Below are positions 3,292 through 57,684 of a DNA stretch of 64,000 nt, piece after piece. Below the pieces are notes generated by a model, which made no database searches, was not told the DNA's origin, and saw nothing but the letters and a program-made list of their open reading frames with translations. Within the stretch, counting starts at the first letter, position 1. Each line of letters opens with the position of its first letter. A program made the position numbers and the translations under genes. The DNA is taken from NCBI GenBank assembly GCA_035714115.1, contig DASTMO010000075.1, forward strand, positions 10,291-74,290, in the 5' to 3' direction. Source of the DNA: Alphaproteobacteria bacterium. GTDB taxonomy: Bacteria; Pseudomonadota; Alphaproteobacteria; SMXQ01.

Positions 3292-4437
3292 ATGCATCCA
3301 GCGCTCCGGGGGGCGTTTGCCGGTTTGGCTTCGCTATTGGTCGCCGGCGCGGCCCAGGCCGCCGATCTGCCGAAGATGACTCAAAAGATTCTCGGCGAAC
3401 TGAAGCTTCAGCCTTCGCTGATGAACGGCATCGACGATGAATTGAAGGTGCCGCAGGCCTGGCTCGATGCCGCCGCCAAAGAGGGCGAGGTCATCATCAT
3501 GGGCACCTGGCCGGAAAAACAATTTCGGGTAATGGTCCAGCCCTTCACCGAACGCTATCCCGCGATCAAGGTCACCTACGAGCGCAACACCGGCCAGGGC
3601 CGCGGCATGCAGGTGGTGATGGCGCTGCAGAACGGCCGCGTGCTCGCCGACGTGCTGACCAGCATCGCCGACACCTACATCCAATATCAGGAGATGAAGG
3701 CCTTCGCCGATCTGCGCGATCTGCCTGGCATCAAGAACATCCCGCCCGAATATGCGTCGTCTGACGGCACCTGGGTCAGCCACAAGCTGTCCTACCGCTG
3801 CATCGGCTACAACACAGACAGCTTGAAGAAGGCCGATATGCCGGCCAAGTGGGAAGACCTGCTCACCAATCCCAAATGGCGCAACGGCAAGCTGACGCTG
3901 ACCAACCAGCCGAACTCCTGGCTGCTCGGCCTGTGGGAGACCTACGGCGAGGATTGGGGCCGCGATTTCACGCGCCGCCTGTTCGAAGAGGTGAAGCCGC
4001 AGCAGCGCAAGGAAAGCATGACAGCCGCCACCGCGCTCACCGTGTCGGGCGAGCTGTTCGCGACGCTGCCGGCGCCCGAGTGGCAGGTGCAGGGCTATGT
4101 CGATAAGGGCGCGCCGATCAACTACCACTGCCCCGAGCCCGTGCCGATCACGCTGTCGCAGATCGTCCTGCTCGACAAGTCGCCGCGCAAGAACGCCGGC
4201 AAGGTCTTCCTCAACTGGATGCTGAGCCGCGAAGGCCAGATGATGCAGTACTACGATTCTTATGTGGTGCCCGTGCACAAGGATCTGCAGATCCCGCCGT
4301 TCGTGTCGGACTTCGTCAATGTCGCCGGCAAACAGAAGAACGTGCGCGACGAATCCCTGCTTGGCAGCGACATGCAGAAAAAGATGCTCGAGACTTGGAA
4401 CAAGTATTTCGCCGCGACCAGCGGCCGCAACCAATAG
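3292..4437 (+). CDS. ABC transporter periplasmic solute-binding protein (family 1, iron/thiamine-type fold), orphan
   Basis: GGGAGAG RBS, then Met at 3292. Signal peptide MHPALRGAFAGLASLLVAGAAQA. Extracellular solute-binding protein features follow. No permease or ATPase genes are adjacent. Confidence 0.8.
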   Translation: MHPALRGAFAGLASLLVAGAAQAADLPKMTQKILGELKLQPSLMNGIDDELKVPQAWLDAAAKEGEVIIMGTWPEKQFRVMVQPFTERYPAIKVTYERNTGQGRGMQVVMALQNGRVLADVLTSIADTYIQYQEMKAFADLRDLPGIKNIPPEYASSDGTWVSHKLSYRCIGYNTDSLKKADMPAKWEDLLTNPKWRNGKLTLTNQPNSWLLGLWETYGEDWGRDFTRRLFEEVKPQQRKESMTAATALTVSGELFATLPAPEWQVQGYVDKGAPINYHCPEPVPITLSQIVLLDKSPRKNAGKVFLNWMLSREGQMMQYYDSYVVPVHKDLQIPPFVSDFVNVAGKQKNVRDESLLGSDMQKKMLETWNKYFAATSGRNQ

Positions 4438-11459: not shown

Positions 11460-11566
11460 GGTGCATCTTACGCTACTGCGCCGCGCGGCACACGAGCATC
11501 AAAAAGGCCCGACCCGCAATAGAGCCAGCTCGCGGTATCCACTTATAGATATTTGAATTGCTTGAA

Positions 11567-13432
11567 TTAATTCAGAGATCGAGGCGCTGCAGAGACGGCA
11601 CGAAGACCCACCTGATCGATATGACGCACAAGCCGCTCAACTTCACTGAGCAGTTGCTGCTCGGTAAACGGCTTCGTCAGAACGCCTATCTGCTCATAAG
11701 AGGATGGCAAATTTGCCCGTCCGTAGCCACTGACGAAAATAAACGGCACCTTCGCCCGCGTCAGCGCGGCAGCGACTTCGGTCACCGGCTTGCCGTGCAG
11801 ATTACCGTCCAGCAAAGCGACATCGAACTCGCGGGCCTCAATCATCTGAAGCGCCTGTTCGACCGTGCCGGCGGGACCGACGGCGGTGATTCCCGCATCC
11901 TCCAGCATTGCCTCGATTTCCAAAGCGATCATCGTTTCATCCTCGACGATGAGGACGCGGCACCCACGCAGCTTGCTTTCAGGCTGAGTGATTTCTGATA
12001 GCTGGGCGCTTTGCGGCTCTGGCGCTGGCTGTTTCGACGGTGCCGCGGCGAGCGGCAGCGGCATGATCAGGTCCCAAGCAATGCCGTCGGCACGATAATC
12101 CGCATGAGCCGCGCCACCCTCGGCTTTGGCGCTTTGCTCAATTAAAGTCGTCCCGAATCCGCGGCGCTTCGGCGCCTTCACGCGAGGGCCACCCTTCTCC
12201 AGCCAATTGAGGTGGAGCTGTTCATTCTGAATGCGCCACATCAAAGCCACGGTGCCGTCGGGCGTGGAAAGCGCCCCATACTTAAGCGCATTCGTGCATA
12301 GTTCGTGCAGAATGAGCGCGAGGTGCAAGGCGGTTTCGGGAGCCAGCCACACTTCGGGCCCAACGGCCTCGAAACGCGCAGCATCCACCGCGCCAAGTCT
12401 AAACTGATCTGCAATCAGGTCGCTCAAAGAAGCGCCCTGCCAGGTGGCCTCGCTCAAGAGCGAGTGCGCGCGAGCGAGCGACTGAATTCTTCCAGTAAAG
12501 TTGCGGGTGAAGACTCCTGGGTCCGGAGCGTGACGCAGCGTTTGCGAGGCAATGGCCTGCACCGTCGCCAGCGTGTTTTTGACCCGATGGTTCAGCTCGC
12601 CGATCAATAGCAGCTGCGTTTCCTCAGATCGCCGGCGCTCGCTCACATCCAAAATTTGCGCATTGATCGATACGGAACTGCTGATCGGATCGACCAGGAC
12701 CGAATAGTACCATTCGCACTCGACTGCAGAGCCATCCGCCCGCTTGTTGCGGCAAAGGCGCATATCACGCTCATCGATAAGCGAAGGCTCGGTGACGATA
12801 TCGCGAAGATAAGCAGCATCTCCAACGTCGATCCAATCGCATTCCGCCAGAGACTTTCCAACCATCTCATCGGCGCTCCAGCCAAAGAGACGGCTAGCCC
12901 CGGATGACCAATGGAGAATATTGAGGGCCGCATCGAATTCCACGACCCCGAGCGGCGAATTGTCGCGATGGGCTTCGAGACGGCGAAGCGCGCTCGCCAG
13001 ACTCGAAGAGTTCATGCGCAGTTCATCGCGTTGCGCGGCGAGCTCTTGGCGCTGACTTGCAAGCTCGAAAAACACATCCGCCTTGTTGCGTAGAATGAGC
13101 GGCTCGATGGGCTTTTGAATGAAGTCGACCGCGCCGGCCTCATAACCTCTGAAGCGGCGCTGATTATCCGCGATGCCGGCCGTCACAAAAATAATGGGAA
13201 TGCTTCTGGTGCGCTCATTGCCGCGCATCAACTCTGCGAGTTCAAAACCGTCCAGGCCGGGCATTTGCACGTCGATCAGAGCCAATGCCACTTCGTGCTT
13301 CAAGAGAAGCTCGAGTGCTTCGTCTCCGGAGCGCGCTTTTAGAAGGAGAATATTATCGCGGCGGAGCAGCGCCTCGAGCGACAGAAGATTCTCTTCCAGA
13401 TCGTCGACCAGCAGGAACGATACAGCCCTCAT
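11567..13432 (-). CDS. Hybrid response regulator / PAS / HWE-family (HisKA_2) sensor histidine kinase with a C-terminal receiver
   Basis: Domain order REC-PAS-HWE/HisKA_2-REC: N-terminal REC (LLVDDLEENL...DVQMPGLDGF), coiled coil, PAS, HWE/HisKA_2 H-box (HRVKNTLATVQAIASQT), N-box (HELCTNALKYGAL), and C-terminal REC (VLIVEDETMIALE). The start is set at ATG 13430-13432, which forms an ATGA overlap with the cheB stop. A GGGAGGG RBS lies upstream. Confidence 0.8.
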   Translation of the reverse strand: MRAVSFLLVDDLEENLLSLEALLRRDNILLLKARSGDEALELLLKHEVALALIDVQMPGLDGFELAELMRGNERTRSIPIIFVTAGIADNQRRFRGYEAGAVDFIQKPIEPLILRNKADVFFELASQRQELAAQRDELRMNSSSLASALRRLEAHRDNSPLGVVEFDAALNILHWSSGASRLFGWSADEMVGKSLAECDWIDVGDAAYLRDIVTEPSLIDERDMRLCRNKRADGSAVECEWYYSVLVDPISSSVSINAQILDVSERRRSEETQLLLIGELNHRVKNTLATVQAIASQTLRHAPDPGVFTRNFTGRIQSLARAHSLLSEATWQGASLSDLIADQFRLGAVDAARFEAVGPEVWLAPETALHLALILHELCTNALKYGALSTPDGTVALMWRIQNEQLHLNWLEKGGPRVKAPKRRGFGTTLIEQSAKAEGGAAHADYRADGIAWDLIMPLPLAAAPSKQPAPEPQSAQLSEITQPESKLRGCRVLIVEDETMIALEIEAMLEDAGITAVGPAGTVEQALQMIEAREFDVALLDGNLHGKPVTEVAAALTRAKVPFIFVSGYGRANLPSSYEQIGVLTKPFTEQQLLSEVERLVRHIDQVGLRAVSAAPRSLN

Positions 13433-14004
13433 CTCGCCGTACCCTCCCGAAGGTAATCCGCAATCTCGCTCAGCGACATCACGGCAGCTCCCGGGCATAG
13501 CGCGATCGCCGCCTCCGGCATGGCCGAGGAAAAGGCCTTAAGCGGATCTTGCACCAGAACCACGCCGCCCGCGTCCGTGATCGCGCGCGCGCCCTGGGCA
13601 CCGTCCTGATTGGCCCCAGTCAGAATCACCCCGATTAACCCAGGGCCGTAAACATCCGCCGCGCTTTCGAACAGCACGTCTATCGACGGCCGAGAGAAAA
13701 GCACCGGCTCATCGCTCGAAAGCGAAAGGCTTTCTTCGCTCTCGACGAGCACGTGATAATCGGGAGGGGCAAAATATATTGTGCCGGGCTCGATAGGCTC
13801 TTTGTCTTCGATCTCACGAACGTCGACTTGGCATTTCGCCTGAAAGAGTTCCGCCAGCACGCTGCGTTTGTCCGGCGGGACATGGACGACCACAAACACC
13901 GGCAATTTGAAGTTCGCCGGTAAAGTTGTTAGCACGGCCGACAAGGCTTCGAGAGCGCCGGCAGATGCGCCAATGACGATCGCTTTGGCTTGAGACGCCG
14001 TCAT
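13429..14004 (-). CDS. cheB: CheB-type protein-glutamate methylesterase, catalytic domain only (no receiver domain)
   Basis: MTASQAKAIVIGASAGALEAL...VVVHVPPD...DVLFESAADV covers the Ser, His and Asp regions of CheB_methylest. The ATG overlaps the cheR stop as ATGA. Confidence 0.85.
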   Translation of the reverse strand: MTASQAKAIVIGASAGALEALSAVLTTLPANFKLPVFVVVHVPPDKRSVLAELFQAKCQVDVREIEDKEPIEPGTIYFAPPDYHVLVESEESLSLSSDEPVLFSRPSIDVLFESAADVYGPGLIGVILTGANQDGAQGARAITDAGGVVLVQDPLKAFSSAMPEAAIALCPGAAVMSLSEIADYLREGTAR

Positions 14005-14840
14005 ATGGCGCGCCTCTGATAAATTTTTTCGTCGCGGTCGAAATCCGCAAAGAAATTTGCATGACGAGAAAAGCGCAGGCTTTCCTTTGCGCCGAGCCCC
14101 AAGAACCCCTTTCGCGACAGCGAATCCTTGAATAAGCCGAGCGCCCGATCCTGCAAGCCGCGGTCGAAATAGATCAAAACGTTGCGGCACGAAACAAACT
14201 GCATCTCCGCGAAAACGGCGTCGGTCACCAGACTATGGTCAGAGAACACGACGTTGCGCCGCAGGCTCTTATCGAAGGCCGCGCGCCCATATGCGGCTTG
14301 GTAATAGTCCGACAAAGAGGATTTACCGCCGGATTTGCGGTGGTTTTCGGTGAACAGCTGCATGCGTTCCAGAGCGAAAATCCCGGATTCCGCAGCGTGA
14401 AGAGCATCCTGATTGATGTCGGTCGCATAGAAAATCGTGCGCTCCTCGATGCCCTCCTCGCGAAAGAGAATGACCATCGAATATAACTCTTCGCCGCCGC
14501 TGCAGCCGGCAATCCAGACTTTGAGCGACGGGTAAGTCCGCAAATGCGGCACCAGCTTTTCACGAATGACGCGAAAGTAGCCAGGATCGCGGAACATCTC
14601 GCTGACCTGAACCGTCAGATAGCCCAACAGCCGTGGCAGCATGGAAGGCTCATGTAGCAGACGGTCCTGCAAGGCGGAGATCGTCGCAAAACCCAACTGA
14701 TCGCGCGCCTGACGAAGACGGCGCTTGATGGACGCCATCGCGTAATTGCGAAAATCGTAATGATATTTCAGGTACAGCGCCTCCAAGAGGAGCCGTATTT
14801 CGATATCTTCGATTTTCTCCGGCGCCGCATCGTCCGTCAT
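14001..14840 (-). CDS. cheR: CheR-type protein-glutamate O-methyltransferase
   Basis: CheR N-terminal helical region and SAM-dependent methyltransferase domain (VWIAGCSGGEELYSMVIL...NVLIYF). ATGA overlaps at both ends. Confidence 0.85.
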   Translation of the reverse strand: MTDDAAPEKIEDIEIRLLLEALYLKYHYDFRNYAMASIKRRLRQARDQLGFATISALQDRLLHEPSMLPRLLGYLTVQVSEMFRDPGYFRVIREKLVPHLRTYPSLKVWIAGCSGGEELYSMVILFREEGIEERTIFYATDINQDALHAAESGIFALERMQLFTENHRKSGGKSSLSDYYQAAYGRAAFDKSLRRNVVFSDHSLVTDAVFAEMQFVSCRNVLIYFDRGLQDRALGLFKDSLSRKGFLGLGAKESLRFSRHANFFADFDRDEKIYQRRAI

Positions 14841-17800
14841 CGCGGCATCCAGACACGCACAAGCGACAGGAGCTTTTCGACATCCAGCGGCTTCGCCATG
14901 TAATCGTTGGCACCGGCATCGATACAGCGCTGCTGATCGTCGGGCATAGCCTTAGCTGTCAGGGTGATGACCGGCAGCTTCTTCAAAAGGGGATTCTTGC
15001 GGATTTCCCTGGTTGCGGTGAGACCATCCATCACTGGCATCATCACGTCCATCAGCACCAGATCGATGGCCGCATTGGGGTCTTTCGCCGACTGCTCAAG
15101 GACGGTCAAAGCTTCCTGGCCGTTGCGCGCGATTTGGACGACCGCTCCGCGAGGCTCGAGAATATTTGTTAAGGCGTAAACGTTCCGGATGTCGTCCTCG
15201 ACCACCAGAATTCGCCGGCCTTCCAGCAAAGCATCCCGGCTTCTCGCCTTACGGATCATGCGTTGATGCTCATCCGGCAGCTTCGATACCACCTGATGCA
15301 GGAAGAGACTGACCTCGTCCAACAATCGCTCCGGGGACTTCGCGCCTTTGATGATGATCGATTTGGAATAGCGGCGCAGCCGCTGCTCGTCATCGGCGGA
15401 AAGCTCTCTGCCGGTGTAAACGATGACCGGCGGGAAGGAGTGGGGCCCACCTTCGCTCAGCGTTTCGAGCAAGGAATAGCCTGAGGCATCCGGCAACGAC
15501 AGATCCAGGACCATGCAATCGAACGTCTCTTCTTTGAGATGTGCGAGGCACTCAGCCGCCGTGCCAACCGTGACTGCCTCAACCTCATGGGACGTCAAAA
15601 GCTTGGCCACCGCTTCTCGCTGAACGATGTCGTCTTCGACGATGAGGATACGCCGCACCCGCTGCGATAATCGATCATTGAGCCTGGTCAGCACATCGAC
15701 CAGCTGCTCGCGTTTGACGGGCTTCAGCTCATAGCCGATCGCGCCGAGCGAAAGCGCCGTTTCGGCCTGATCGCTCGCCGACACGACATGGATGGGGATA
15801 TGGCGCGTTTTGACGTCTTGCTTCAGCCGATCCAGCACCGACAAGCCGGATTGATCAGGCAAGCCCACGTCGAGAACGATCGCATTGGGCATATAATGTT
15901 GGGCGAGGTTCAAAGCCTCTTCGGCCGTACCGGCGACGAGCGATTTGAAACCCATTTCGCGCGAAAGATCGCGCAGGATGGTCGCGAAGCTGTCGTCATC
16001 CTCAACGACCAAGAGCACGCGCTTAGAGCCGGCTTGCTCGGCACGATCGTCTTCGACTTTACGGATGCGGCCCGGCAGGGCCGGCTGCGGCGTTTCCACC
16101 TTGGGCCCGGATGGCGCCGGCATGCTCTTTTGAGCATTGCGCGCCACGACCTTGGCCGGGTCGTAGGACACCGGAACCGTAATCGTGAAGGTGCTGCCTT
16201 TTCCCAGTTCGCTATCGAGGTTGAAATCGCCGCCTAACAGGCGAACCAGCTGACGTGAGATAGACAGTCCCAGGCCGGTGCCGCCGTATTTTCGGCTGAT
16301 CGTGCTGTCCGCCTGATGGAAGGCTTCAAAGACATGACTTTGCTGGCCTTCAGCAATGCCGATGCCCGTGTCGGAGACCGCAAAGGAAATGCGCTCGTCG
16401 CTCGCCCGGCGAATCGACAAGCTGACTTTGCCCGTCTCGGTGAATTTGAAGGCATTGGACAAAAGATTTTTAAGAACCTGCTCGAGCCGCAGCGGATCGG
16501 TGTCCATGAGTGGCGGGCATTCAGGCTCGATCTGGACGACGAACTGCAACTTTTTCTGCTGAGCGACGGGCTGGAAGAGCTGGCGCAAATTGCCCGCCAA
16601 CCGCTCGACGGCAACCGATTCAGGTTTGATGTCCACATGGCCGGCCTCGATCTTGGAAAGATCGAGGATGTCGTTGATGAGCGTCAGCAGATCGTTGCCG
16701 GACGATTGAATCGTTTGAGCATATTTGACTTGCTCGGCTGTCAGATTGTCGTCCGGATTGTCGGCGAGAAGCTTGGCGAGAATCAACGAGGAATTCAGCG
16801 GCGTGCGCAATTCGTGCGACATGTTCGCCAAGAAGTCCGATTTATATTGGCTTGCCTGCTCTAACTCCCGGGCTTTGAGCTGCACCGAGATGTTGGCTCG
16901 CTCCAGATCGTCCTTCTGCAATTCGAGCTGCTGAGTTTGCTCTTCCAGCTGGGAATTCGTCTGCTCAAGCTCGGCCTGCTGTTGCTCAAGCCGCGCTTGC
17001 GATTCCTTAAGCGCGCGACCTTGCTCTTCCAGCTCTTCGTTGGACACGCGGAGCTCTTCACTTTGCGTTTGCAGTTCTTCCGATTGACGTTGGGTTTCTT
17101 CCAAGAGGTTCTGCAGTTCGCTGCGATAGTTGGCCGAGCGCATGGCGATCGCCACCGGGGCGGATGCCTCGTCCAACAGGGCGAGCATGCTTTCATCGAC
17201 CGGCCCTAAGAAACCCAGCTCGATGACGGAAGTGACCGCGCCATCGACGCTATTGGGGACAATCGCAAGATGCCTCGGCTTGTCGCTCCCCAATGCCGAA
17301 CCGAAGGCGATGTATCCGTCGGGAATTTCGCTGATCACTCTCGGGCGATTTTCCGCAGCCGCCTGCCCCAGCAAGCCGCCTCGCAGGTGGAATTTTGCCG
17401 GAACGTTCGCGGTCTCCGGCACTCCATATGTGGAGGCGCGCCGGAAGGTCTCACCGGCGCCGATGAAAAGCGCGCCGGCAACGGCCCCAAGATAGCGCGC
17501 CAAGAATTCGAGAATATTATTCCCGAGCTGCTCGATAGATTGATCGCCGGCCATCGCGGCCGCCAATTCAATCTGCCCCTTTTGCAGCCACTCCTCGCGC
17601 CGGCGCGCCAATGTCGCCCTTCGGGTCAGGAAGCCGATCGTTGCCGTGAGGAAGATGCCCAACAATCCAGAAAGCAAACCGCTGGCAAGCGCTGTCGCTT
17701 GCGCTTCTTTCATTTCCGCTAAGCGTTTGACGCGAGTGCTGGTCTCTTCTTGAGCCACTGCATCGAGCTGCGCTCGAATGGCGTCCATTTCCGCTTTGCC

Positions 17801-18268
17801 GCGATCGGAATTGACGATCGCCAGCGCCGCTTCAAAACCTTGCGTGCGGCGTATTTCGATTGTCTGCGTGAGCTCCCGAAGTTTGGCGGCCACATGCGTT
17901 CTCAATGCGGCGATTCTCGGCGTTTGAGCTGCGTTATCGCCGGTCAGTTCGGCAATCTTGTCGAGTTTGGAGGGAATGTTCTCCAAAGCCTCGCTGTACG
18001 GCTGAAGATACGCCTCGTTGTTCGTCAGCAGAAAACCGCGTTGTCCCGTCTCCGCATCTTGCGTGCTGGACAACAGCTCATCGAGCGCGACGATCACGGT
18101 ATGCGTGCGGACGACCTTCTCATTGCCCTCGCGCAAAGCTTCGAGGTTGAAATAGGCGACCGTGCCGCTAACGATAAAAAAGACCAGAGCGCCCGCTAGA
18201 CCTAGCGAGACAACAGGATCCAGCCCCAGTTTGCGCACTGAACTCTGTGGCATCGCGCTCTTTTGCAT
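14837..18268 (-). CDS. Hybrid sensor histidine kinase: TM, CHASE3 periplasmic sensor, TM, GAF, EELQ-repeat coiled coil, HisKA, HATPase_c, three receiver domains
   Basis: 1143 aa. Two TM helices flank a CHASE3 signature (ETGQRGFLLTNNEAYLQPY). H-box SHELRTPLNS. G-boxes. Three REC domains (VLLVVEDDDSF.., ILIVEDDIVQ.., ILVVEDDIRN..). Confidence 0.9.
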   Translation of the reverse strand: MQKSAMPQSSVRKLGLDPVVSLGLAGALVFFIVSGTVAYFNLEALREGNEKVVRTHTVIVALDELLSSTQDAETGQRGFLLTNNEAYLQPYSEALENIPSKLDKIAELTGDNAAQTPRIAALRTHVAAKLRELTQTIEIRRTQGFEAALAIVNSDRGKAEMDAIRAQLDAVAQEETSTRVKRLAEMKEAQATALASGLLSGLLGIFLTATIGFLTRRATLARRREEWLQKGQIELAAAMAGDQSIEQLGNNILEFLARYLGAVAGALFIGAGETFRRASTYGVPETANVPAKFHLRGGLLGQAAAENRPRVISEIPDGYIAFGSALGSDKPRHLAIVPNSVDGAVTSVIELGFLGPVDESMLALLDEASAPVAIAMRSANYRSELQNLLEETQRQSEELQTQSEELRVSNEELEEQGRALKESQARLEQQQAELEQTNSQLEEQTQQLELQKDDLERANISVQLKARELEQASQYKSDFLANMSHELRTPLNSSLILAKLLADNPDDNLTAEQVKYAQTIQSSGNDLLTLINDILDLSKIEAGHVDIKPESVAVERLAGNLRQLFQPVAQQKKLQFVVQIEPECPPLMDTDPLRLEQVLKNLLSNAFKFTETGKVSLSIRRASDERISFAVSDTGIGIAEGQQSHVFEAFHQADSTISRKYGGTGLGLSISRQLVRLLGGDFNLDSELGKGSTFTITVPVSYDPAKVVARNAQKSMPAPSGPKVETPQPALPGRIRKVEDDRAEQAGSKRVLLVVEDDDSFATILRDLSREMGFKSLVAGTAEEALNLAQHYMPNAIVLDVGLPDQSGLSVLDRLKQDVKTRHIPIHVVSASDQAETALSLGAIGYELKPVKREQLVDVLTRLNDRLSQRVRRILIVEDDIVQREAVAKLLTSHEVEAVTVGTAAECLAHLKEETFDCMVLDLSLPDASGYSLLETLSEGGPHSFPPVIVYTGRELSADDEQRLRRYSKSIIIKGAKSPERLLDEVSLFLHQVVSKLPDEHQRMIRKARSRDALLEGRRILVVEDDIRNVYALTNILEPRGAVVQIARNGQEALTVLEQSAKDPNAAIDLVLMDVMMPVMDGLTATREIRKNPLLKKLPVITLTAKAMPDDQQRCIDAGANDYMAKPLDVEKLLSLVRVWMPR
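16852..17122 (-). repeat. Low-complexity coding repeat encoding a Glu/Gln-rich heptad coiled coil (SEELQTQSEELRVSNEELEEQ...LEEQTQQLELQ)
   Basis: gagctg/cagctg/ctcttc motifs recur in the DNA. The translation is a roughly 90-residue EELQ-type repeat between the GAF and HisKA domains of the CHASE3 kinase. Confidence 0.7.
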
Positions 18269-18631
18269 ATTGGTCTCGTCAGCATTGAGGAATTGGGCAT
18301 GAAGACCTCATGCGGCGCGCATGCGAGTTCTCGCAGCATCGCCGAGACATGAAGCGTGAGGATTTAACGGTAGCGCGACGGTTTGGCGGGCATCGGTGAG
18401 TTACGTTTGGGATGCGAAAACGTTCCGTCACCCAACTGATTAAATGCATCCAAGGCGATCATGCTGAGTCAGAGGTGCTCAGGGAGCACATCCGACTGAT
18501 CAGCAAGATGCGCGATCATCAGATACGGACCAGAAGGAAAGCCATTCGGTTGCAGAAAAAGTCGGGGATTCCGAACCTGCGCAAGCTCCCGAAATCACGC
18601 ACAACCCATTGATATATAGTGATAATTAAGA

Positions 18632-18725
18632 TGGCGGAGGGGGTGGGCTTCGAACCCCGCCGGCCGCGCTGATGCGCGCGGCCGCCACTTCATAGCCAGT
18701 AGGTTCGAACCCACGCGATGCGCTG
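18632..18725 (-). repeat. Degenerate partial copies of the tRNA-Ser 3' end (T-arm and acceptor); possible att-site remnant
   Basis: tggcggagggggtgggcttcgaacccc (18632-18658) matches the 3' end of the adjacent tRNA-Ser with one mismatch. A second ggttcgaacccac fragment lies at 18702-18714. Confidence 0.55.
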
Positions 18726-18739
18726 ATCAAAAGGGGAAA

Positions 18740-18829
18740 TGGCGGAGGGGGTGGGATTCGAACCCACGGTACCCTCGCGGGCACAACGGTTTTCGAGACC
18801 GCCCCGATCGACCACTCTGGCACCCCTCC
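18740..18829 (-). tRNA. tRNA-Ser (anticodon CGA)
   Basis: The reverse complement folds as a class II tRNA of 90 nt. Acceptor GGAGGGG, long variable arm, anticodon stem GCGGU/ACCGU with loop CUCGAAA, T-arm GTGGGTTCGAATCCCAC, encoded CCA. Confidence 0.85.
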
Positions 18830-51903: not shown

Positions 51904-52530
51904 GTTCGCCCGATGATTTGCAGATCTTGCTTCGGCAGGAGGCCGTCGACAGGGTCACGATCGGCGCGCTCGAAACGCGCTCGAAAAGACGCGAAGCCCG
52001 GCGCGAAGCCGCGGCCGCCATTGGCCGCCGACCCGGCCGGGTACGGTGCCGCGTAATCTATCACCCTCGCTTTTCGGATCAACCTATAACGGGCGGTTTT
52101 CGGCCATTTTCCGCCGTAAAGTCAGGCTCTTGCCGCAATTTCCGACAGCTTCGTGACCGCTCAGCCACGGTGCATTGGCGCAGCCGTTGACCCCATAGGA
52201 ATTCACGAAGAGAGGACGTTATCGGTGCCTCGAAAGGCGCTCCGAAGGCCGCCTGGCAGGCGCGGCGCCGCGGATCGCGCCGAGCGGCCGATAAAGGGCG
52301 AATAAATATTTGGAATCAATTGAGTAGCCGGCGATCAATGAGATCGCAGGGGCGCTCTATATATAAGTGTGTCGCGTGGCGGAGCGGCAGCGCGTAAAGC
52401 GCGGGGAAAGGGCGAGCGATAGGTACCCCCGAAACGTTCCCGCCCCGACCATCGCTTGGGCGATGGACGGGGCGGGTAAGGCTGGCCCGGGAACAAGTCC
52501 CGGGCCGAAGTCTAGCTTCAGAAGAAGCTA

Positions 52531-52620
52531 TTACTTCTTCTTGGCCGGGGCCTTCTTCTTGGCCTTCTTCGCAACCTTAGCCTTCTTGGCAACCTTCTTC
52601 TTCGCGGGCTTCTTAACCAT
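52531..52620 (-). CDS. Candidate 29-aa lysine-rich mini-protein (MVKKPAKKKVAKKAKVAKKAKKKAPAKKK) between mdh and sucC
   Basis: The minus-strand ORF runs in the same direction as the flanking TCA genes, with AGAGAG about 7 nt upstream of ATG. The plus-strand 93-aa ORF over the same DNA is its hydrophobic mirror. Confidence 0.35.
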   Translation of the reverse strand: MVKKPAKKKVAKKAKVAKKAKKKAPAKKK

Positions 52621-52685
52621 TGTTCTGCTCTCTTTGTTAGTGTGTTGATTATCCGAAACGATTTTACGCTTTGGTCTGCCCTGAT

Positions 52686-53657
<972 letters not shown>

Positions 53658-53970
53658 TTACGTCTTCACGTCACGAAACGGAACTGGATCTTCATAACGA
53701 CGCTGCGGCTTCCGTCTTCATTCAAGCTGCAAAGCGTAACGCTTTGTCGAATACCGTCCGCGATCTCGCCGTGAGCTTCGAAGCAACCTGCCTTCATCAA
53801 GCGATCAACCTCGAACAGAAGCGTCTCTCGCGTCATCGATCGGCATCTTCACTCGTCGTCTTCGCCGACCGATCGAGCGGCACTCGTCACCGCCGGAAAG
53901 TCCGTAAGCAGGACTCTCGACGCGCATAATTATCCAAAATTGAAACGTAGAAAATAAAAAAATGTGTTGC

Positions 53971-54180
53971 GGAGACGATTCGAGTCGTTTTTTTCGCCTC
54001 GCGCGACTCATTCGACACGCGATTCGATCCTTCGAGGACGATTTCCGATTCGTTTTTTCGTCTCATCGAGTCGTTTCGACTCGTGCTTTTGGACTGAAGG
54101 AGTCGTTTCGACTCGCGCTTTTGGACTTTGGCGACTCGATTCGAGTCGCGCGCGGCAAACGCGCGACGACTCATTCGGTT
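53971..54180. repeat. Array of palindromes and tandem ~33-bp repeats built on the half-site CGACTC/GAGTCG upstream of mdh
   Basis: CGAGTCG-TTT-CGACTCG occurs twice within two tandem ~33-bp units (54067-54132). The perfect 17-nt palindrome CGACTCGATTCGAGTCG sits at 54132-54148. GACTCATTCG occurs twice. Flanking DNA is AT-rich. Confidence 0.7.
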
Positions 54181-54216
54181 CGACCGCCGCGCGCGCCTCT
54201 GACAGGTCAGATGCGC

Positions 54217-55056
54217 TCAGACTCCGTAGTCGAGACCGATGTCGACGGCCGGCGCGGACTGCGTCATGCGCCCCACCGAGACAAAGTCGACGCCGCTGGA
54301 AGCCTTGTCGCGTATGGTTTCCAGCGTAATGCCGCCCGATGCTTCAAGCACCGCGCGGCCAGCGACGATGGCGACCGCCTGCTTGAGCAGCGCCGGCTCC
54401 ATATTGTCCAAAAGGATCATGCCGGCGCCGGCGGCGACCGCTTCTTTCACCTGATCGAGGGTGTCGCACTCCACTTCCACCACCGTCAGGGCCGGGGTGA
54501 CACGCTTGGCGCGCTGCACTGCAGCGGTGAGGCTGCCGCAGGCGGCGATATGGTTGTCCTTGATCAGCACGCCGTCATCCAGGCGCAGGCGGTGGTTGCG
54601 CGCGCCGCCGGTGAAGCTGGCGTATTTGGCGAGATTGCGCAGGGTGGGGATGGTTTTGCGCGTATCGATCAGCGTCGCGCCGGTTCCCTCGACCAGTTCG
54701 GCGTAGCGCCGCGTCACCGTGGCGATGCCCGAGAGATGCTGCAGGATGTTGAGCGCCGTGCGCTCGGCTTCGAGGATGGCGCGGGCATCGCCGGAAAAGC
54801 GCGCCAGCACGGTCTTGGCGTTAACTTTCTCGCCATCCTTCACTAAGGCCTGCGTTTCAATATCGGCACGCACGCGCTTGAACACCGCCATGGCGATGTC
54901 GATGCCGCAGACCACGACCTCCTGACGCGCCACCATGGCGACCTTGAGCTGCGTGCCCTCGGGAATGGTCGCGTAGCTCGTGAGGTCGCCGCGGCCGACA
55001 TCCTCGGCCAGGGCGCGATCGATGAAGTCGTCGATTTCGGCGCGGGAGAGCTGCAT
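54217..55056 (-). CDS. nadC: Nicotinate-nucleotide pyrophosphorylase (carboxylating)
   Basis: QPRTase family, 279 aa. Confidence 0.9.
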   Translation of the reverse strand: MQLSRAEIDDFIDRALAEDVGRGDLTSYATIPEGTQLKVAMVARQEVVVCGIDIAMAVFKRVRADIETQALVKDGEKVNAKTVLARFSGDARAILEAERTALNILQHLSGIATVTRRYAELVEGTGATLIDTRKTIPTLRNLAKYASFTGGARNHRLRLDDGVLIKDNHIAACGSLTAAVQRAKRVTPALTVVEVECDTLDQVKEAVAAGAGMILLDNMEPALLKQAVAIVAGRAVLEASGGITLETIRDKASSGVDFVSVGRMTQSAPAVDIGLDYGV

Positions 55057-55135
55057 CGGAATAATCCTGCGGATGGAGAAACGGCGGCCTCTTTATAGGA
55101 GGCCGCCGCTCGCGGTGCAAAATGTAGAACGAACC

Positions 55136-56167
55136 TTAACGGGCCTTGTCCGCCGCCGTGGCCGGCGCCGGGATCGACGCCGACATGGCGAGCATGCGTT
55201 CGAGCGGCAGCGCCGCCGCCTGGCGCAGCGGTTCGGCGAGATCGAGGCTCGGCGTCATGTCGCGCAGGGCGAGATAGAGCTTCTCGACCGTGTTGAGCGC
55301 CATGAAGGGGCAGGCGTTGCAGGCGCACGGGCCTTCGGTGCCGCTGATCGGAATGAAACGCTTGGTCGGCGCCAGCTTCTGCATCTGATGGATCAGGCCG
55401 GTGTCGGTGCCGATGATGAATTCCTCGGCCTTCGATGCCAGCACATATTCGAGGATCGAACGCGTCGAACCGACATGATCGGACTGCGCCAGAACGCCGG
55501 CGCCGCTTTCCGGATGCGAGGCGACCAGCGCCTTAGGGTGGCGCGCCTTCAGCTTGGCCAGCTCGCGGTCGGCGAAGCTTTCATGGACGATGCAGGTGCC
55601 CGGCCACAGCGTCATCTCGCGGCCGGTAGCCTTGGCGAGATAAGCGCCGAGATTGCGGTCGGGCGCGAACAGGATCGGCTTGTCCGCCGGGATCTGACGG
55701 ATGATCGCTTCGGCGTTCGACGAGGTGACGATGATGTCGCTGAGCGCCTTCACCTCGGCCGAGCAGTTGATGTAGGTGATGGCGACATGGTCGGGGTGGG
55801 CGTCGCGGAACGCCTTGAACGGGCCGGGCTTGCAGGAATCTTCCAGCGAGCAGCCGGCGGCCATATCGGGCAGCAGCACGGTCTTGGAGGGCGACAGGAT
55901 CTTCGCCACCTCGGCCATGAATTTCACGCCGCAGAACACGATGACGTCGGCGTCCGTGCTCGCCGCCTTGCGCGACAGGTCGAGCGAATCGCCGACGAAG
56001 TCGGCGAGATCCTGGATTTCGCCGTCCTGATAATAGTGCGCGAGGATCACCGCGTTGCGCTCGCGGCGCAGGCGGTTGATCTCGGCCGGCAGGTCGAGGC
56101 GCGGGTCGACCGGCGCGCGCCCATTGGGGTTGGCGGCGGCAGAGGGAACGATCAACGTGTCGGACAT
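55136..56167 (-). CDS. nadA: Quinolinate synthase A
   Basis: NadA family with three conserved Cys (Fe-S ligands). 343 aa. Confidence 0.9.
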   Translation of the reverse strand: MSDTLIVPSAAANPNGRAPVDPRLDLPAEINRLRRERNAVILAHYYQDGEIQDLADFVGDSLDLSRKAASTDADVIVFCGVKFMAEVAKILSPSKTVLLPDMAAGCSLEDSCKPGPFKAFRDAHPDHVAITYINCSAEVKALSDIIVTSSNAEAIIRQIPADKPILFAPDRNLGAYLAKATGREMTLWPGTCIVHESFADRELAKLKARHPKALVASHPESGAGVLAQSDHVGSTRSILEYVLASKAEEFIIGTDTGLIHQMQKLAPTKRFIPISGTEGPCACNACPFMALNTVEKLYLALRDMTPSLDLAEPLRQAAALPLERMLAMSASIPAPATAADKAR

Positions 56168-56439: not shown

Positions 56440-57684
56440 TCAGGTCAAATGCTTAGCCTGGCGGTAGCCGTCGGTCTGCATTTCCAGCAGGCGCGAGACG
56501 GTGCGCTCGAACTCGAAGGCGAAATCGCCGTCGGGATAAAGCCGGCGCGGCTCGACGGCCGCCGAGGCGATCAAGTTGACCTTATGCTCGTAGAGCGCGT
56601 CGATCAGCGTGGTGAAGCGGAAGGCCTCGTTGCGCTTTTCCGGTCCGAGCTGCGGCACGCCGTCGAGGATCAGCGTGTGAAAATGCGTGGCGACCGCGAT
56701 GTAGTCCGCCGCGCCGAGCGCGCGGGCGCAGAGATCGTCGAAGCCGAAACGCGCCACGCCCTTGGCCGAGACCGGCACGGCGAGCTTGCGCCCCTGCACC
56801 ATCAGCACCGTCGGCTCGGCCTCGGGCGCCGGCACGACCTTGAAGCCGGCCTGCCGCTCTTTGGCCGAGAGCGGCAACGACGGCGCGTCGTCATCGCCCG
56901 TGCCGTCTTGCGTCAGCAAGTCGTAGGCCTCATCAAGCGCATGGCTGGCGGCGGGCCCGAGCGGCGAATGCCACAGCGGCATGCCTTTCAGACGCAATAG
57001 ACGGTAATCCTCGCCGCCGTCGAGCTCGATGACGTCGAGCTTCTCTTTGAGCAGCGCGATGAATGGCAGGAACAGTTCGCGCTGCAACCCGCCTTTATAA
57101 AGTTCGTCGGGCGCGCGATTGGAGGTGGCGACGACGACGATGCCGCGCTCGAACAAAGCCGTGAACAGGCGGCCGAGGATCGCCGCGTCGGCGATGTTGG
57201 TCACCTGAAACTCATCGAAACAGAGCAGCCAGGTCTGAGCGGCGATTTCGGCGGCGAGCTTGGGCACCGGATCGGCCTCCGCGCCCTTGGTGCGCTGACG
57301 CCATTCATGCAGGCGCTGATGCACCTCGATCATGAAGGCATGGAAATGCACGCGGCGCTTGTGATGGGCGGCGACCGGCGCGGTCTCGTAGAACAAATCC
57401 ATCAGCATGGACTTGCCGCGCCCGACCGCGCCGAAAATGTAAAGCCCCTGCGGCGGCGTCTCGTCGCGGCGGGCAAGCCCCAGGCGCGCCTTCCAACTGC
57501 CGAGCGCGCCCATGAAGCCGCCGCCGCCGTCGACCGGCCGGTAGGACTTTAGCGCATCGTGCAGCTGCTGCAATTTTTCGGCGGCCAGATCCTGCACGGG
57601 ATCGGGCTTGATCGCGCCCGAGCGCCGGCGCTCGCGCAGCGCGGCGACGGGACCTTGGGACGATGAGGCGTCGGTTGGAGCCAT
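56440..57684 (-). CDS. zapE: Cell division protein ZapE (AFG1-like ATPase)
   Basis: Walker A GAVGRGKS and AFG1-family architecture. Confidence 0.8.

Follow-up and report, generated by a model that had tools for sequence, protein, structure and literature searches.

The spacer between nadC (quinolinate phosphoribosyltransferase) and mdh (malate dehydrogenase) in a 64-kb stretch of the alphaproteobacterial contig DASTMO010000075.1 (hereafter the window; positions are counted from its first letter) harbors a dense array of GANTC pentamers, which lies directly upstream of a strongly conserved, promoter-like AT-rich core. GANTC is the word targeted by CcrM, the DNA adenine methyltransferase that acts in the alphaproteobacterial cell cycle. 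We propose, at a probability of roughly 0.4, that the array is a cluster of CcrM methylation sites that would render transcription of mdh and the following suc genes methylation-sensitive, via GcrA or an occluding protein. A first-pass annotation of this DNA had suggested a multi-site operator for a dimeric transcription factor controlling the mdh-suc operon of the tricarboxylic acid (TCA) cycle or, alternatively, an inserted miniature repeat element. The operator proposal is partly supported; it was partly right on the place and wrong on the unit: the unit is the CcrM site, and the palindromes are a lineage-specific, polymorphic expansion together with a hairpin at the nadC 3' end. Rather than a classical operator or a mobile element, the array appears to be a methylation-linked regulatory region of unusual site density.

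GANTC sites are concentrated upstream of mdh

The spacer measures 565-568 bp, depending on whether the in-frame TTG at 53651 or the ATG at 53648 is taken as the mdh start. Its GC content drops to 0.41-0.51 at 53900-54150 compared to 0.65 for the whole window, in line with the AT-rich spacer of 565 bp described in the first-pass annotation. The "about nine" copies of CGACTC/GAGTCG reported there within 200 bp were recovered as exactly nine in 191 bp (53982-54172). In the whole window this hexamer was observed 24 times versus 56.7 times expected from shuffles; it is thus depleted elsewhere and concentrated in the spacer.

Since GAGTC and GACTC are both forms of GANTC, every copy of the hexamer carries a GANTC site. 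Once GATTC and GAATC are counted as well, the spacer holds 14 sites between 53912 and 54172, while the entire 64 kb hold 130. Thirteen of the 14 fall within 250 nt upstream of the AT-rich core, a stretch for which dinucleotide shuffles gave 3.0 sites and none out of 2000 reached 13. By approximate gene calling, the remaining true intergenic regions of the window contain 0-2 sites each, and no 250-bp segment of 1.28 Mb of unrelated loci held more than 9. When the 16 palindromic pentamers of the form XYNY'X' were compared over the upstream regions of the window and its relatives, the only frequent ones were GANTC (37 occurrences) and the GC-only words CGNCG and GCNGC.

The sites also differ in their flanks from those elsewhere in the window. 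A YGAKTCK context surrounds 12 of the 14 spacer sites versus 46 of 116 elsewhere (Fisher p = 0.0013), and a CGANTCG context 10 of 14 versus 29 of 116. Many sites follow an A-tract, and the words AAAACGA and AAACGAC rank among the 7-mers with the strongest enrichment. Each of the four possible central bases occurs among the sites of the window and its relatives, and the sites are arranged singly, as direct repeats (CGAATCGAAAAACGAATCG in relative L129, GAATCGAATC in L131), as inverted repeats or as abutting pentamers with a 5-bp spacing. Such mixed arrangements agree with selection acting on how many short GANTC words are present and not with one operator geometry.

The enrichment recurs in related species

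Syntenic loci were found via NadC homologues. They comprise L129 (87% NadC identity to the window), L130 and L132 (82-83%), L131 (81%), L216 (78%), L217 and L218 (76-77%) and L133, L134 and L135 (70-74%). A search of metagenomic contigs with NadC returned almost exclusively relatives at about 50% identity, and one match at 75% (L136) that is not located beside mdh. Alignment of the window spacer with those of its relatives (alignment A2), in which the window, L129, L130 and L131 represent the four closest species, resolved five layers: nadC 3' hairpins, a 32-nt tandem repeat, a block of about 100 nt, a 48-nt core and a leader (Table 1).

Apart from a few positions, the core does not vary among the long-spacer species (window, L129, L130/L132, L131, L216 and L217/L218), even beside flanks that cannot be aligned, and this in species whose NadC is only 76-87% identical to that of the window. 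Within the window its sequence is unique. We take the core to be the putative mdh promoter, with GATAAT as its -10 element. As a scan for consensus sigma-70 promoters called none on either strand, the core included, the position of the predicted mdh start is deduced from conservation alone. On its (+) strand the core contains a near-consensus DnaA box with one mismatch, TTATCCAAA. The presumed leader is partly conserved, varies from 105 to 317 nt and, in the window, folds unremarkably (z = 0.13). Patterns for CtrA, FixK/Fnr, the alphaproteobacterial LexA box, EcfG and sigma-54 were absent from the six spacers scanned.

Upstream of the core lies the block of about 100 nt. Its six GANTC sites are at 53977, 53982, 54005, 54021 and 54047 and, cut by the block's edge, 54068; it further includes a small inverted repeat, TCCT..AGGA, and two A6-7 tracts, after each of which comes a CGANTCG. 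Across the four closest species, 75 of its 97 columns are invariant. The alignment fold of this block showed neither compensatory pairs nor covariation.

GANTC sites of the relatives were counted over 142-174 nt each upstream of the core. L129 has 6 sites (9 of 2000 dinucleotide shuffles), L130 has 5 (29 of 2000), L131 has 6 (6 of 2000) and L216 has 6 (11 of 2000), so that, with the window, GANTC is enriched over shuffles in five out of six species. The enrichment in L216 is independent, since its upstream part cannot be aligned to that of the window, yet it holds GAATCGATTC and CGAGTCG-GAAAT-CGACTCG. Footprinting of mdh upstream regions, recommended in the first-pass annotation, separates what is shared (the core, the block and the GANTC enrichment) from what is not (the palindromic tandem units).

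Relatives also carry sites close to the putative promoter elements. In L129, L130 and L131 a GANTC lies between the putative -35 and -10 elements, at about -22, and most relatives have one at about +8. The promoter region of L133-L135 is compact (110-120 nt), and two of these three loci, L133 and L134, have a single CGATTCG at about -20, immediately upstream of GCTAGT. This compact form reads CTTGC-N-CGATTC(G/A)GGCTAG (L133 11828-11944, L134 11836-11957), where GANTC abuts the -10-like GCTAG. The same architecture is seen in L220 at about 4020-4040, downstream of a nadC without adjacent mdh.

Table 1 Features of the nadC-mdh spacer and the genes that flank it.
Feature	Position	Strand	Description
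nadC, quinolinate phosphoribosyltransferase	54217-55056	(-)	gene upstream of the spacer; NCBIfam TIGR00078, E=1.4e-94; stop codon 54217-54219
Small hairpin CTGACCTGTCAG	54199-54210	(-)	just past the nadC stop; paired in the minimum free energy fold
nadC 3' hairpin GAGTCGTCGCGCG-TTTGC-CGCGCGCGACTC	54143-54172	(-)	GC-rich 12-bp stem with one bulge and a 5-nt loop
8+1+8 palindrome (17 nt) CGACTCGATTCGAGTCG	54132-54148		three back-to-back GANTC pentamers (54133, 54138, 54143)
Tandem repeat	54067-54151		period 32, 2.6 copies (Tandem Repeats Finder); window species only
32-nt unit missing in strain L008	54084-54115		alignment A3; NadC of L008 identical to that of the window
Upstream block with GANTC sites and A-tracts	53970-54066	(-)	kept in four species (NadC identity 81-100%)
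AT-rich 48-nt core TTTTTTATTTTCTAC-N-TTNCA-W-TTTTGGATAATTATGCGC	53922-53969	(-)	putative promoter; GATAAT at 53934-53929
GAGTC near the predicted start	53912-53916		about 6-10 nt downstream of the predicted start; kept in window, L129, L130, L131; GATTC there in L217
Presumed mdh 5' leader	53649-53921	(-)	about 270 nt; 172/270 columns invariant among four species
mdh, malate dehydrogenase	52686-53648	(-)	NCBIfam match; followed by sucC, sucD, sucA, sucB
GANTC sites	53912, 53977, 53982, 54005, 54021, 54047, 54068, 54078, 54100, 54110, 54133, 54138, 54143, 54168		the 14 sites of the spacer

Palindromic units expand within one species, next to a nadC hairpin

The palindromes on which the operator proposal was built behave differently from the GANTC sites. 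CGAGTCG-TTT-CGACTCG had been described as occurring twice, inside tandem units of about 33 bp. The repeat is real, with a period of 32, and the second copy of the motif deviates by one mismatch: CGAGTCGTTTCGACTCG matches exactly at 54067-54083, and the copy at 54099-54115 starts with G. GCTTTTGGACT is exact at both 54085 and 54117. Each 32-nt unit carries a CGAGTCG-AAA-CGACTC(G/C) palindrome, with two GANTC sites 10 bp apart, and AGTCCAAAAGC. The perfect 17-nt palindrome was found as described, as were the two occurrences of CGACTCATTCG, at 54004 and 54167.

Neither the 32-nt units nor the 17-bp palindromes are present in L129, L130 or L131 (alignment A2); they are confined to the window species. 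A palindrome of 14-20 bp conserved in orthologous promoters, as would be expected of a dimeric-factor operator, was not found, and only L216 has one analogous pair.

The within-species set consisted of six metagenomic contigs with identical NadC, all of which carry the same array with at most 4 single-nucleotide differences; the within-species alignment A3 includes strain L008. L008 lacks exactly one 32-nt unit, and the copy number of the repeat is therefore polymorphic within the species. With head-to-tail units whose number differs between strains, the sequence is a variable-number tandem repeat. L008 has also lost one GANTC site by a change of GAATC to GAAAC.

At the nadC end of the array, two of the "half-sites" of the first-pass annotation turned out to be the arms of the nadC 3' hairpin, the ends of whose stem are the GANTC sites 54143 and 54168. 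Here L008 carries G->C at 54170 and C->G at 54145, which alters both sides of one stem base pair in a compensatory manner (L008 897-1185). Each of the two positions is the central, unread N of a GANTC site, which speaks for selection to maintain the base pair; the simplest form would be a hairpin in the RNA where nadC ends. The stem is not followed by a U-tract, and a terminator scan of the (-) strand called no terminator; the combination of GC-rich hairpin and U-tract that defines an intrinsic terminator is thus not seen for nadC.

Compared with shuffles, the array as a whole has a better folding energy on either strand (z about -2.7). Palindromes are expected to produce such an excess, from which no strand can be read. 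Rfam produced no match to 52500-55200 even at E<=5, and only a tRNA in the whole window at gathering thresholds. Two further candidates were discarded. Small open reading frames (ORFs) through the array or the leader were rejected because indels in the relatives break their frames. A replication origin or parS site was rejected as well: the genes do not switch strand at the locus, there is a single DnaA-like box, and no parS match was obtained.

A methylation-sensitive regulatory region as the proposed function

Outside Rickettsiales and Magnetococcales, CcrM is conserved in Alphaproteobacteria, whose genomes contain few GANTC sites overall but favor them in intergenic DNA (PMC3973325). The alphaproteobacterial affiliation of the window thereby predicts a host ccrM gene. 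In Caulobacter, GcrA rides sigma-70 RNA polymerase and activates promoters with methylated YGAKTCK sites near -20 or at +2 to +30 (PMC4647560). For cell-cycle promoters of this organism a single GANTC in the 50 bp around the start is the near-universal pattern, and only 11 out of 96 have more (PMC4287350). Access of CcrM to GANTC sites can be blocked by MucR (PMC5172544).

In the proposed mechanism, the array would be N6-adenine methylated by CcrM and would become hemimethylated once the replication fork passes. Its methylation state would then alter the occupancy of a methylation-sensitive factor. One candidate is GcrA bound to RNA polymerase, whose YGAKTCK preference is matched by most of the sites; the other is an AT-tract-binding protein such as MucR, which would compete with CcrM. 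With either factor, the mdh-sucCDAB genes would be transcribed in dependence on replication, the cell cycle or the growth state. The nadC-mdh spacer is best explained as a composite regulatory region that combines hairpins, a slippage-prone repeat adding two GANTC sites per unit, an A-tract/GANTC block, the core and the leader.

GANTC sites in promoter or regulatory DNA, as found at CcrM-regulated promoters, are present in number (14 sites), and their enrichment recurs in relatives. With the CcrM/GcrA promoters of Caulobacter (ctrA P1, mipZ, ftsZ, podJ) the array shares the motif, the YGAKTCK flanking context and the alphaproteobacterial host, and its relatives in addition have sites near -20 and just past the putative start. 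The Caulobacter promoters, however, carry one, rarely two sites within 40-50 bp of the start and belong to cell-cycle genes, whereas here 13 sites lie at about -45 to -290 of the predicted start of a TCA-cycle operon. The hypomethylated GANTC sites occluded by MucR in Caulobacter and Sinorhizobium (Ardissone et al. 2016, PMC5172544) similarly reside in AT-rich promoter DNA, and MucR is a nucleoid-type zinc-finger protein that could block CcrM; dense arrays are not described there.

Two further parallels concern the layout. Like variable-number repeats at contingency loci, the 32-nt unit lies upstream of a putative promoter and differs by one copy between strains, but classical loci use units of 1-7 nt within or between promoter elements, whereas the unit here is long and two alleles were seen. 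In enterobacteria, Dam-dependent GATC clusters occur at pap, agn43 and oriC/SeqA. These clusters likewise place several close methylation sites in regulatory DNA, where protein occupancy depends on methylation or blocks it. Methyltransferase, motif and phylum differ, no SeqA, Lrp or OxyR counterpart was identified, and the parallel is a resemblance only.

A number of observations weigh against methylation-dependent control. The most crowded section of the array cannot be essential, since it is confined to one species and varies there in copy number. Within the conserved block, the GANTC columns are conserved no better than their neighbors, and individual sites have been lost in L129 and L130; L217 and L218 retain the core but carry only one upstream GANTC. 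Known GcrA sites lie within about 40 bp of the start and are mostly single, so that an upstream array is without precedent. If a high-ranked YGAKTCK within 40 bp of the start is taken as the mark of the GcrA regulon, the window itself offers only AGAGTCC at about +8 of the predicted start, a low-ranked GcrA context, while L129, L130 and L131 have a site at about -22 and L133 and L134 have CGATTCG before the -10 element. The mdh and suc genes are absent from the Caulobacter ccrM-dependent gene lists searched, and no precedent for CcrM/GcrA control of a TCA-cycle operon was found in the literature. By tblastn, ccrM, gcrA and mucR were not found in the 64-kb window or the fetched loci, a null result that is uninformative over 64 kb. 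Finally, the depletion of GANTC outside the spacer (observed/expected 0.56) is no outlier, ranking 8th among the 24 pentamers of the same composition. The most depleted of these in the whole window was CTNAG (observed/expected 0.36), for which a similar bias was reported by Gonzalez et al. 2014.

Should the proposal hold, it would matter beyond this locus. CcrM/GcrA control has so far been described almost exclusively for genes of the cell cycle and division, with one, occasionally two, GANTC sites beside the start. A 14-site array upstream of a core metabolic operon, with its enrichment kept in related species while the sequence itself turns over, would bring central carbon metabolism into the reach of methylation-dependent control and would also point to a cooperative, density-dependent reading of N6-methyladenine. 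A bolder version, which we regard as doubtful, treats the array as a methylation "rheostat": an expandable block of CcrM sites, gaining or losing two sites per 32-nt unit by slippage, would together with the DnaA-box-like sequence in the core couple mdh-sucCDAB expression to replication and the cell cycle in this uncultured Rhodospirillales-like lineage. If true, central carbon metabolism would be under direct epigenetic cell-cycle control tuned per strain by repeat number, which is undescribed for CcrM/GcrA.

Alternative explanations

Among the alternatives, a non-regulatory origin survives best, although we consider it unlikely. In this scenario RNA hairpins at the nadC 3' end, serving as terminator or stabilizer, were joined by slippage duplications of a hairpin unit in a poorly constrained spacer, and duplicating a seed rich in TCGA and GANTC would have produced the GANTC excess incidentally. 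The compensatory G:C to C:G exchange in the nadC stem, the variation of unit number between strains, the absence of the repeat from the nearest relatives and the folding of the array on both strands all agree with this, and GC-rich hairpins follow nadC in relatives as well. It leaves unexplained, however, the GANTC excess in the non-repeated block of the four species, the 6 sites in the unalignable sequence of L216 and the direct-repeat arrangements, which are unable to form hairpins. The hairpins, moreover, lack U-tracts on the nadC strand, and the fold of the conserved block lacks covariation. If neutral nonetheless, the array would be a clear case of slippage multiplying a short palindrome beside a highly constrained promoter.

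Somewhat less convincing still is an operator array for a sequence-specific transcription factor that reads CGANTCG, either as A-tract plus CGANTCG or as CGANTCG-N3-5-CGANTCG pairs one helical turn apart, with the identity to CcrM sites being coincidental or secondary. The dimeric-factor operator of the first-pass annotation belongs here, and part of it stood: the array lies directly upstream of the conserved core, the motif is far above chance, and the enrichment recurs in orthologues. A bound factor would also account for the flank bias beyond GANTC and the enriched AAAACGA and AAACGAC words noted above, for the recurrence of the paired module in the window, L129 and L216, for a 32-bp period of about three helical turns, and for conservation of the entire block rather than of GANTC sites alone. 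Yet the 17-bp palindromes are species-specific and polymorphic, and the block is conserved in four species without such a pair. What is common to the species is a 5-nt word in direct, inverted and back-to-back layouts, not all of which could be used by a dimeric helix-turn-helix protein. Sites 5 bp apart face opposite sides of the helix, and typical proteins of this kind need a longer half-site than the 3 nt of CGA/TCG. No regulator gene is adjacent. The known alphaproteobacterial regulators of sucCDAB, sdh and mdh, AkgR and CceR of Rhodobacter sphaeroides (PMC4323418), would fill the role that had been proposed, but their motifs (GTGATCAC-N13-GTGATCAC and YGTT-N6-AACW) are different, and neither is present as a functional site. 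A regular-expression scan of the six orthologous spacers returned one isolated GTGATCAC, in L130. This lone AkgR half-site is located in the mdh leader at about 11163, where the window reads AGCTCAC and L131 reads GAGATCAC, and is probably due to chance.

We attach very little weight to an antisense small RNA, a (+)-strand transcript that would run from the AT-rich core and end at CGAGTCGTTTCGACTCG followed by TGCTTTTGG, a hairpin plus T-run that is present twice. A terminator-like site was indeed called on the (+) strand at 54067-54083, and T-runs follow several motifs on that strand. Against this, the promoter scan came up empty on both strands, Rfam gave no match, the terminator-like units belong to the species-specific repeat and are missing in relatives, and the fold of the conserved block contains no compensatory pairs.

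Insertion of a miniature or dispersed repeat upstream of mdh, of the miniature inverted-repeat transposable element or repetitive extragenic palindrome type, is hardly credible: the roughly 70-110 nt of extra DNA relative to the relatives are palindromic, but they form two head-to-tail units made by local tandem duplication, with no terminal repeats and no target duplication, the 17-mer (at up to 3 mismatches), the 11-mer and the core have no second copy in the 64 kb, no copy was found in the syntenic loci of relatives, a 28-mer was unmatched in viral contigs, blastn returned nothing in plasmids, and the 16-mer GAGTCGTTTCGACTCG gave at least 120 single matches over all phyla, as by chance, and none of the matches listed, which did not extend to the source species, lies within a GANTC cluster.

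Genomic context

On the (-) strand the genes follow the order sdhCDAB, zapE (56440-57684), nadA (55136-56167), nadC, the spacer, mdh, sucC, sucD, sucA and sucB; a SpoU-type gene between sdhCDAB and zapE is encoded on the opposite strand. The synteny from zapE to mdh-sucCDAB is an alphaproteobacterial arrangement. NadC and Mdh are identical or near-identical to proteins of uncultured "Alphaproteobacteria bacterium" metagenome-assembled genomes, and the Mdh of the window is 100% identical to the annotated Mdh P0121. The named organisms with the closest Mdh (76-78% identity) are Stella/Allostella, Stellaceae, Dongiaceae and Oceanibaculum.

The spacer between mdh and sucC (51904-52685) is unusually long, measuring 782 bp versus about 145 bp in distant relatives. 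It contains an AT-rich stretch near 52550-52700 (GC 0.44-0.47) and just one GANTC, and an ORF of 29 aa was called in this spacer by gene callers in both L001 and L129. In L129, two additional genes, one of them encoding a Rieske-type protein, are inserted between mdh and sucC. Further away, the window contains a stretch of about 7.3 kb (11460-18829) with lower GC content (0.58), whose ORFs fail the GC3 gene-calling test. It is bounded by a tRNA-Ser(cga) gene (18740-18829, (-) strand) and is probably a genomic island integrated at this tRNA.

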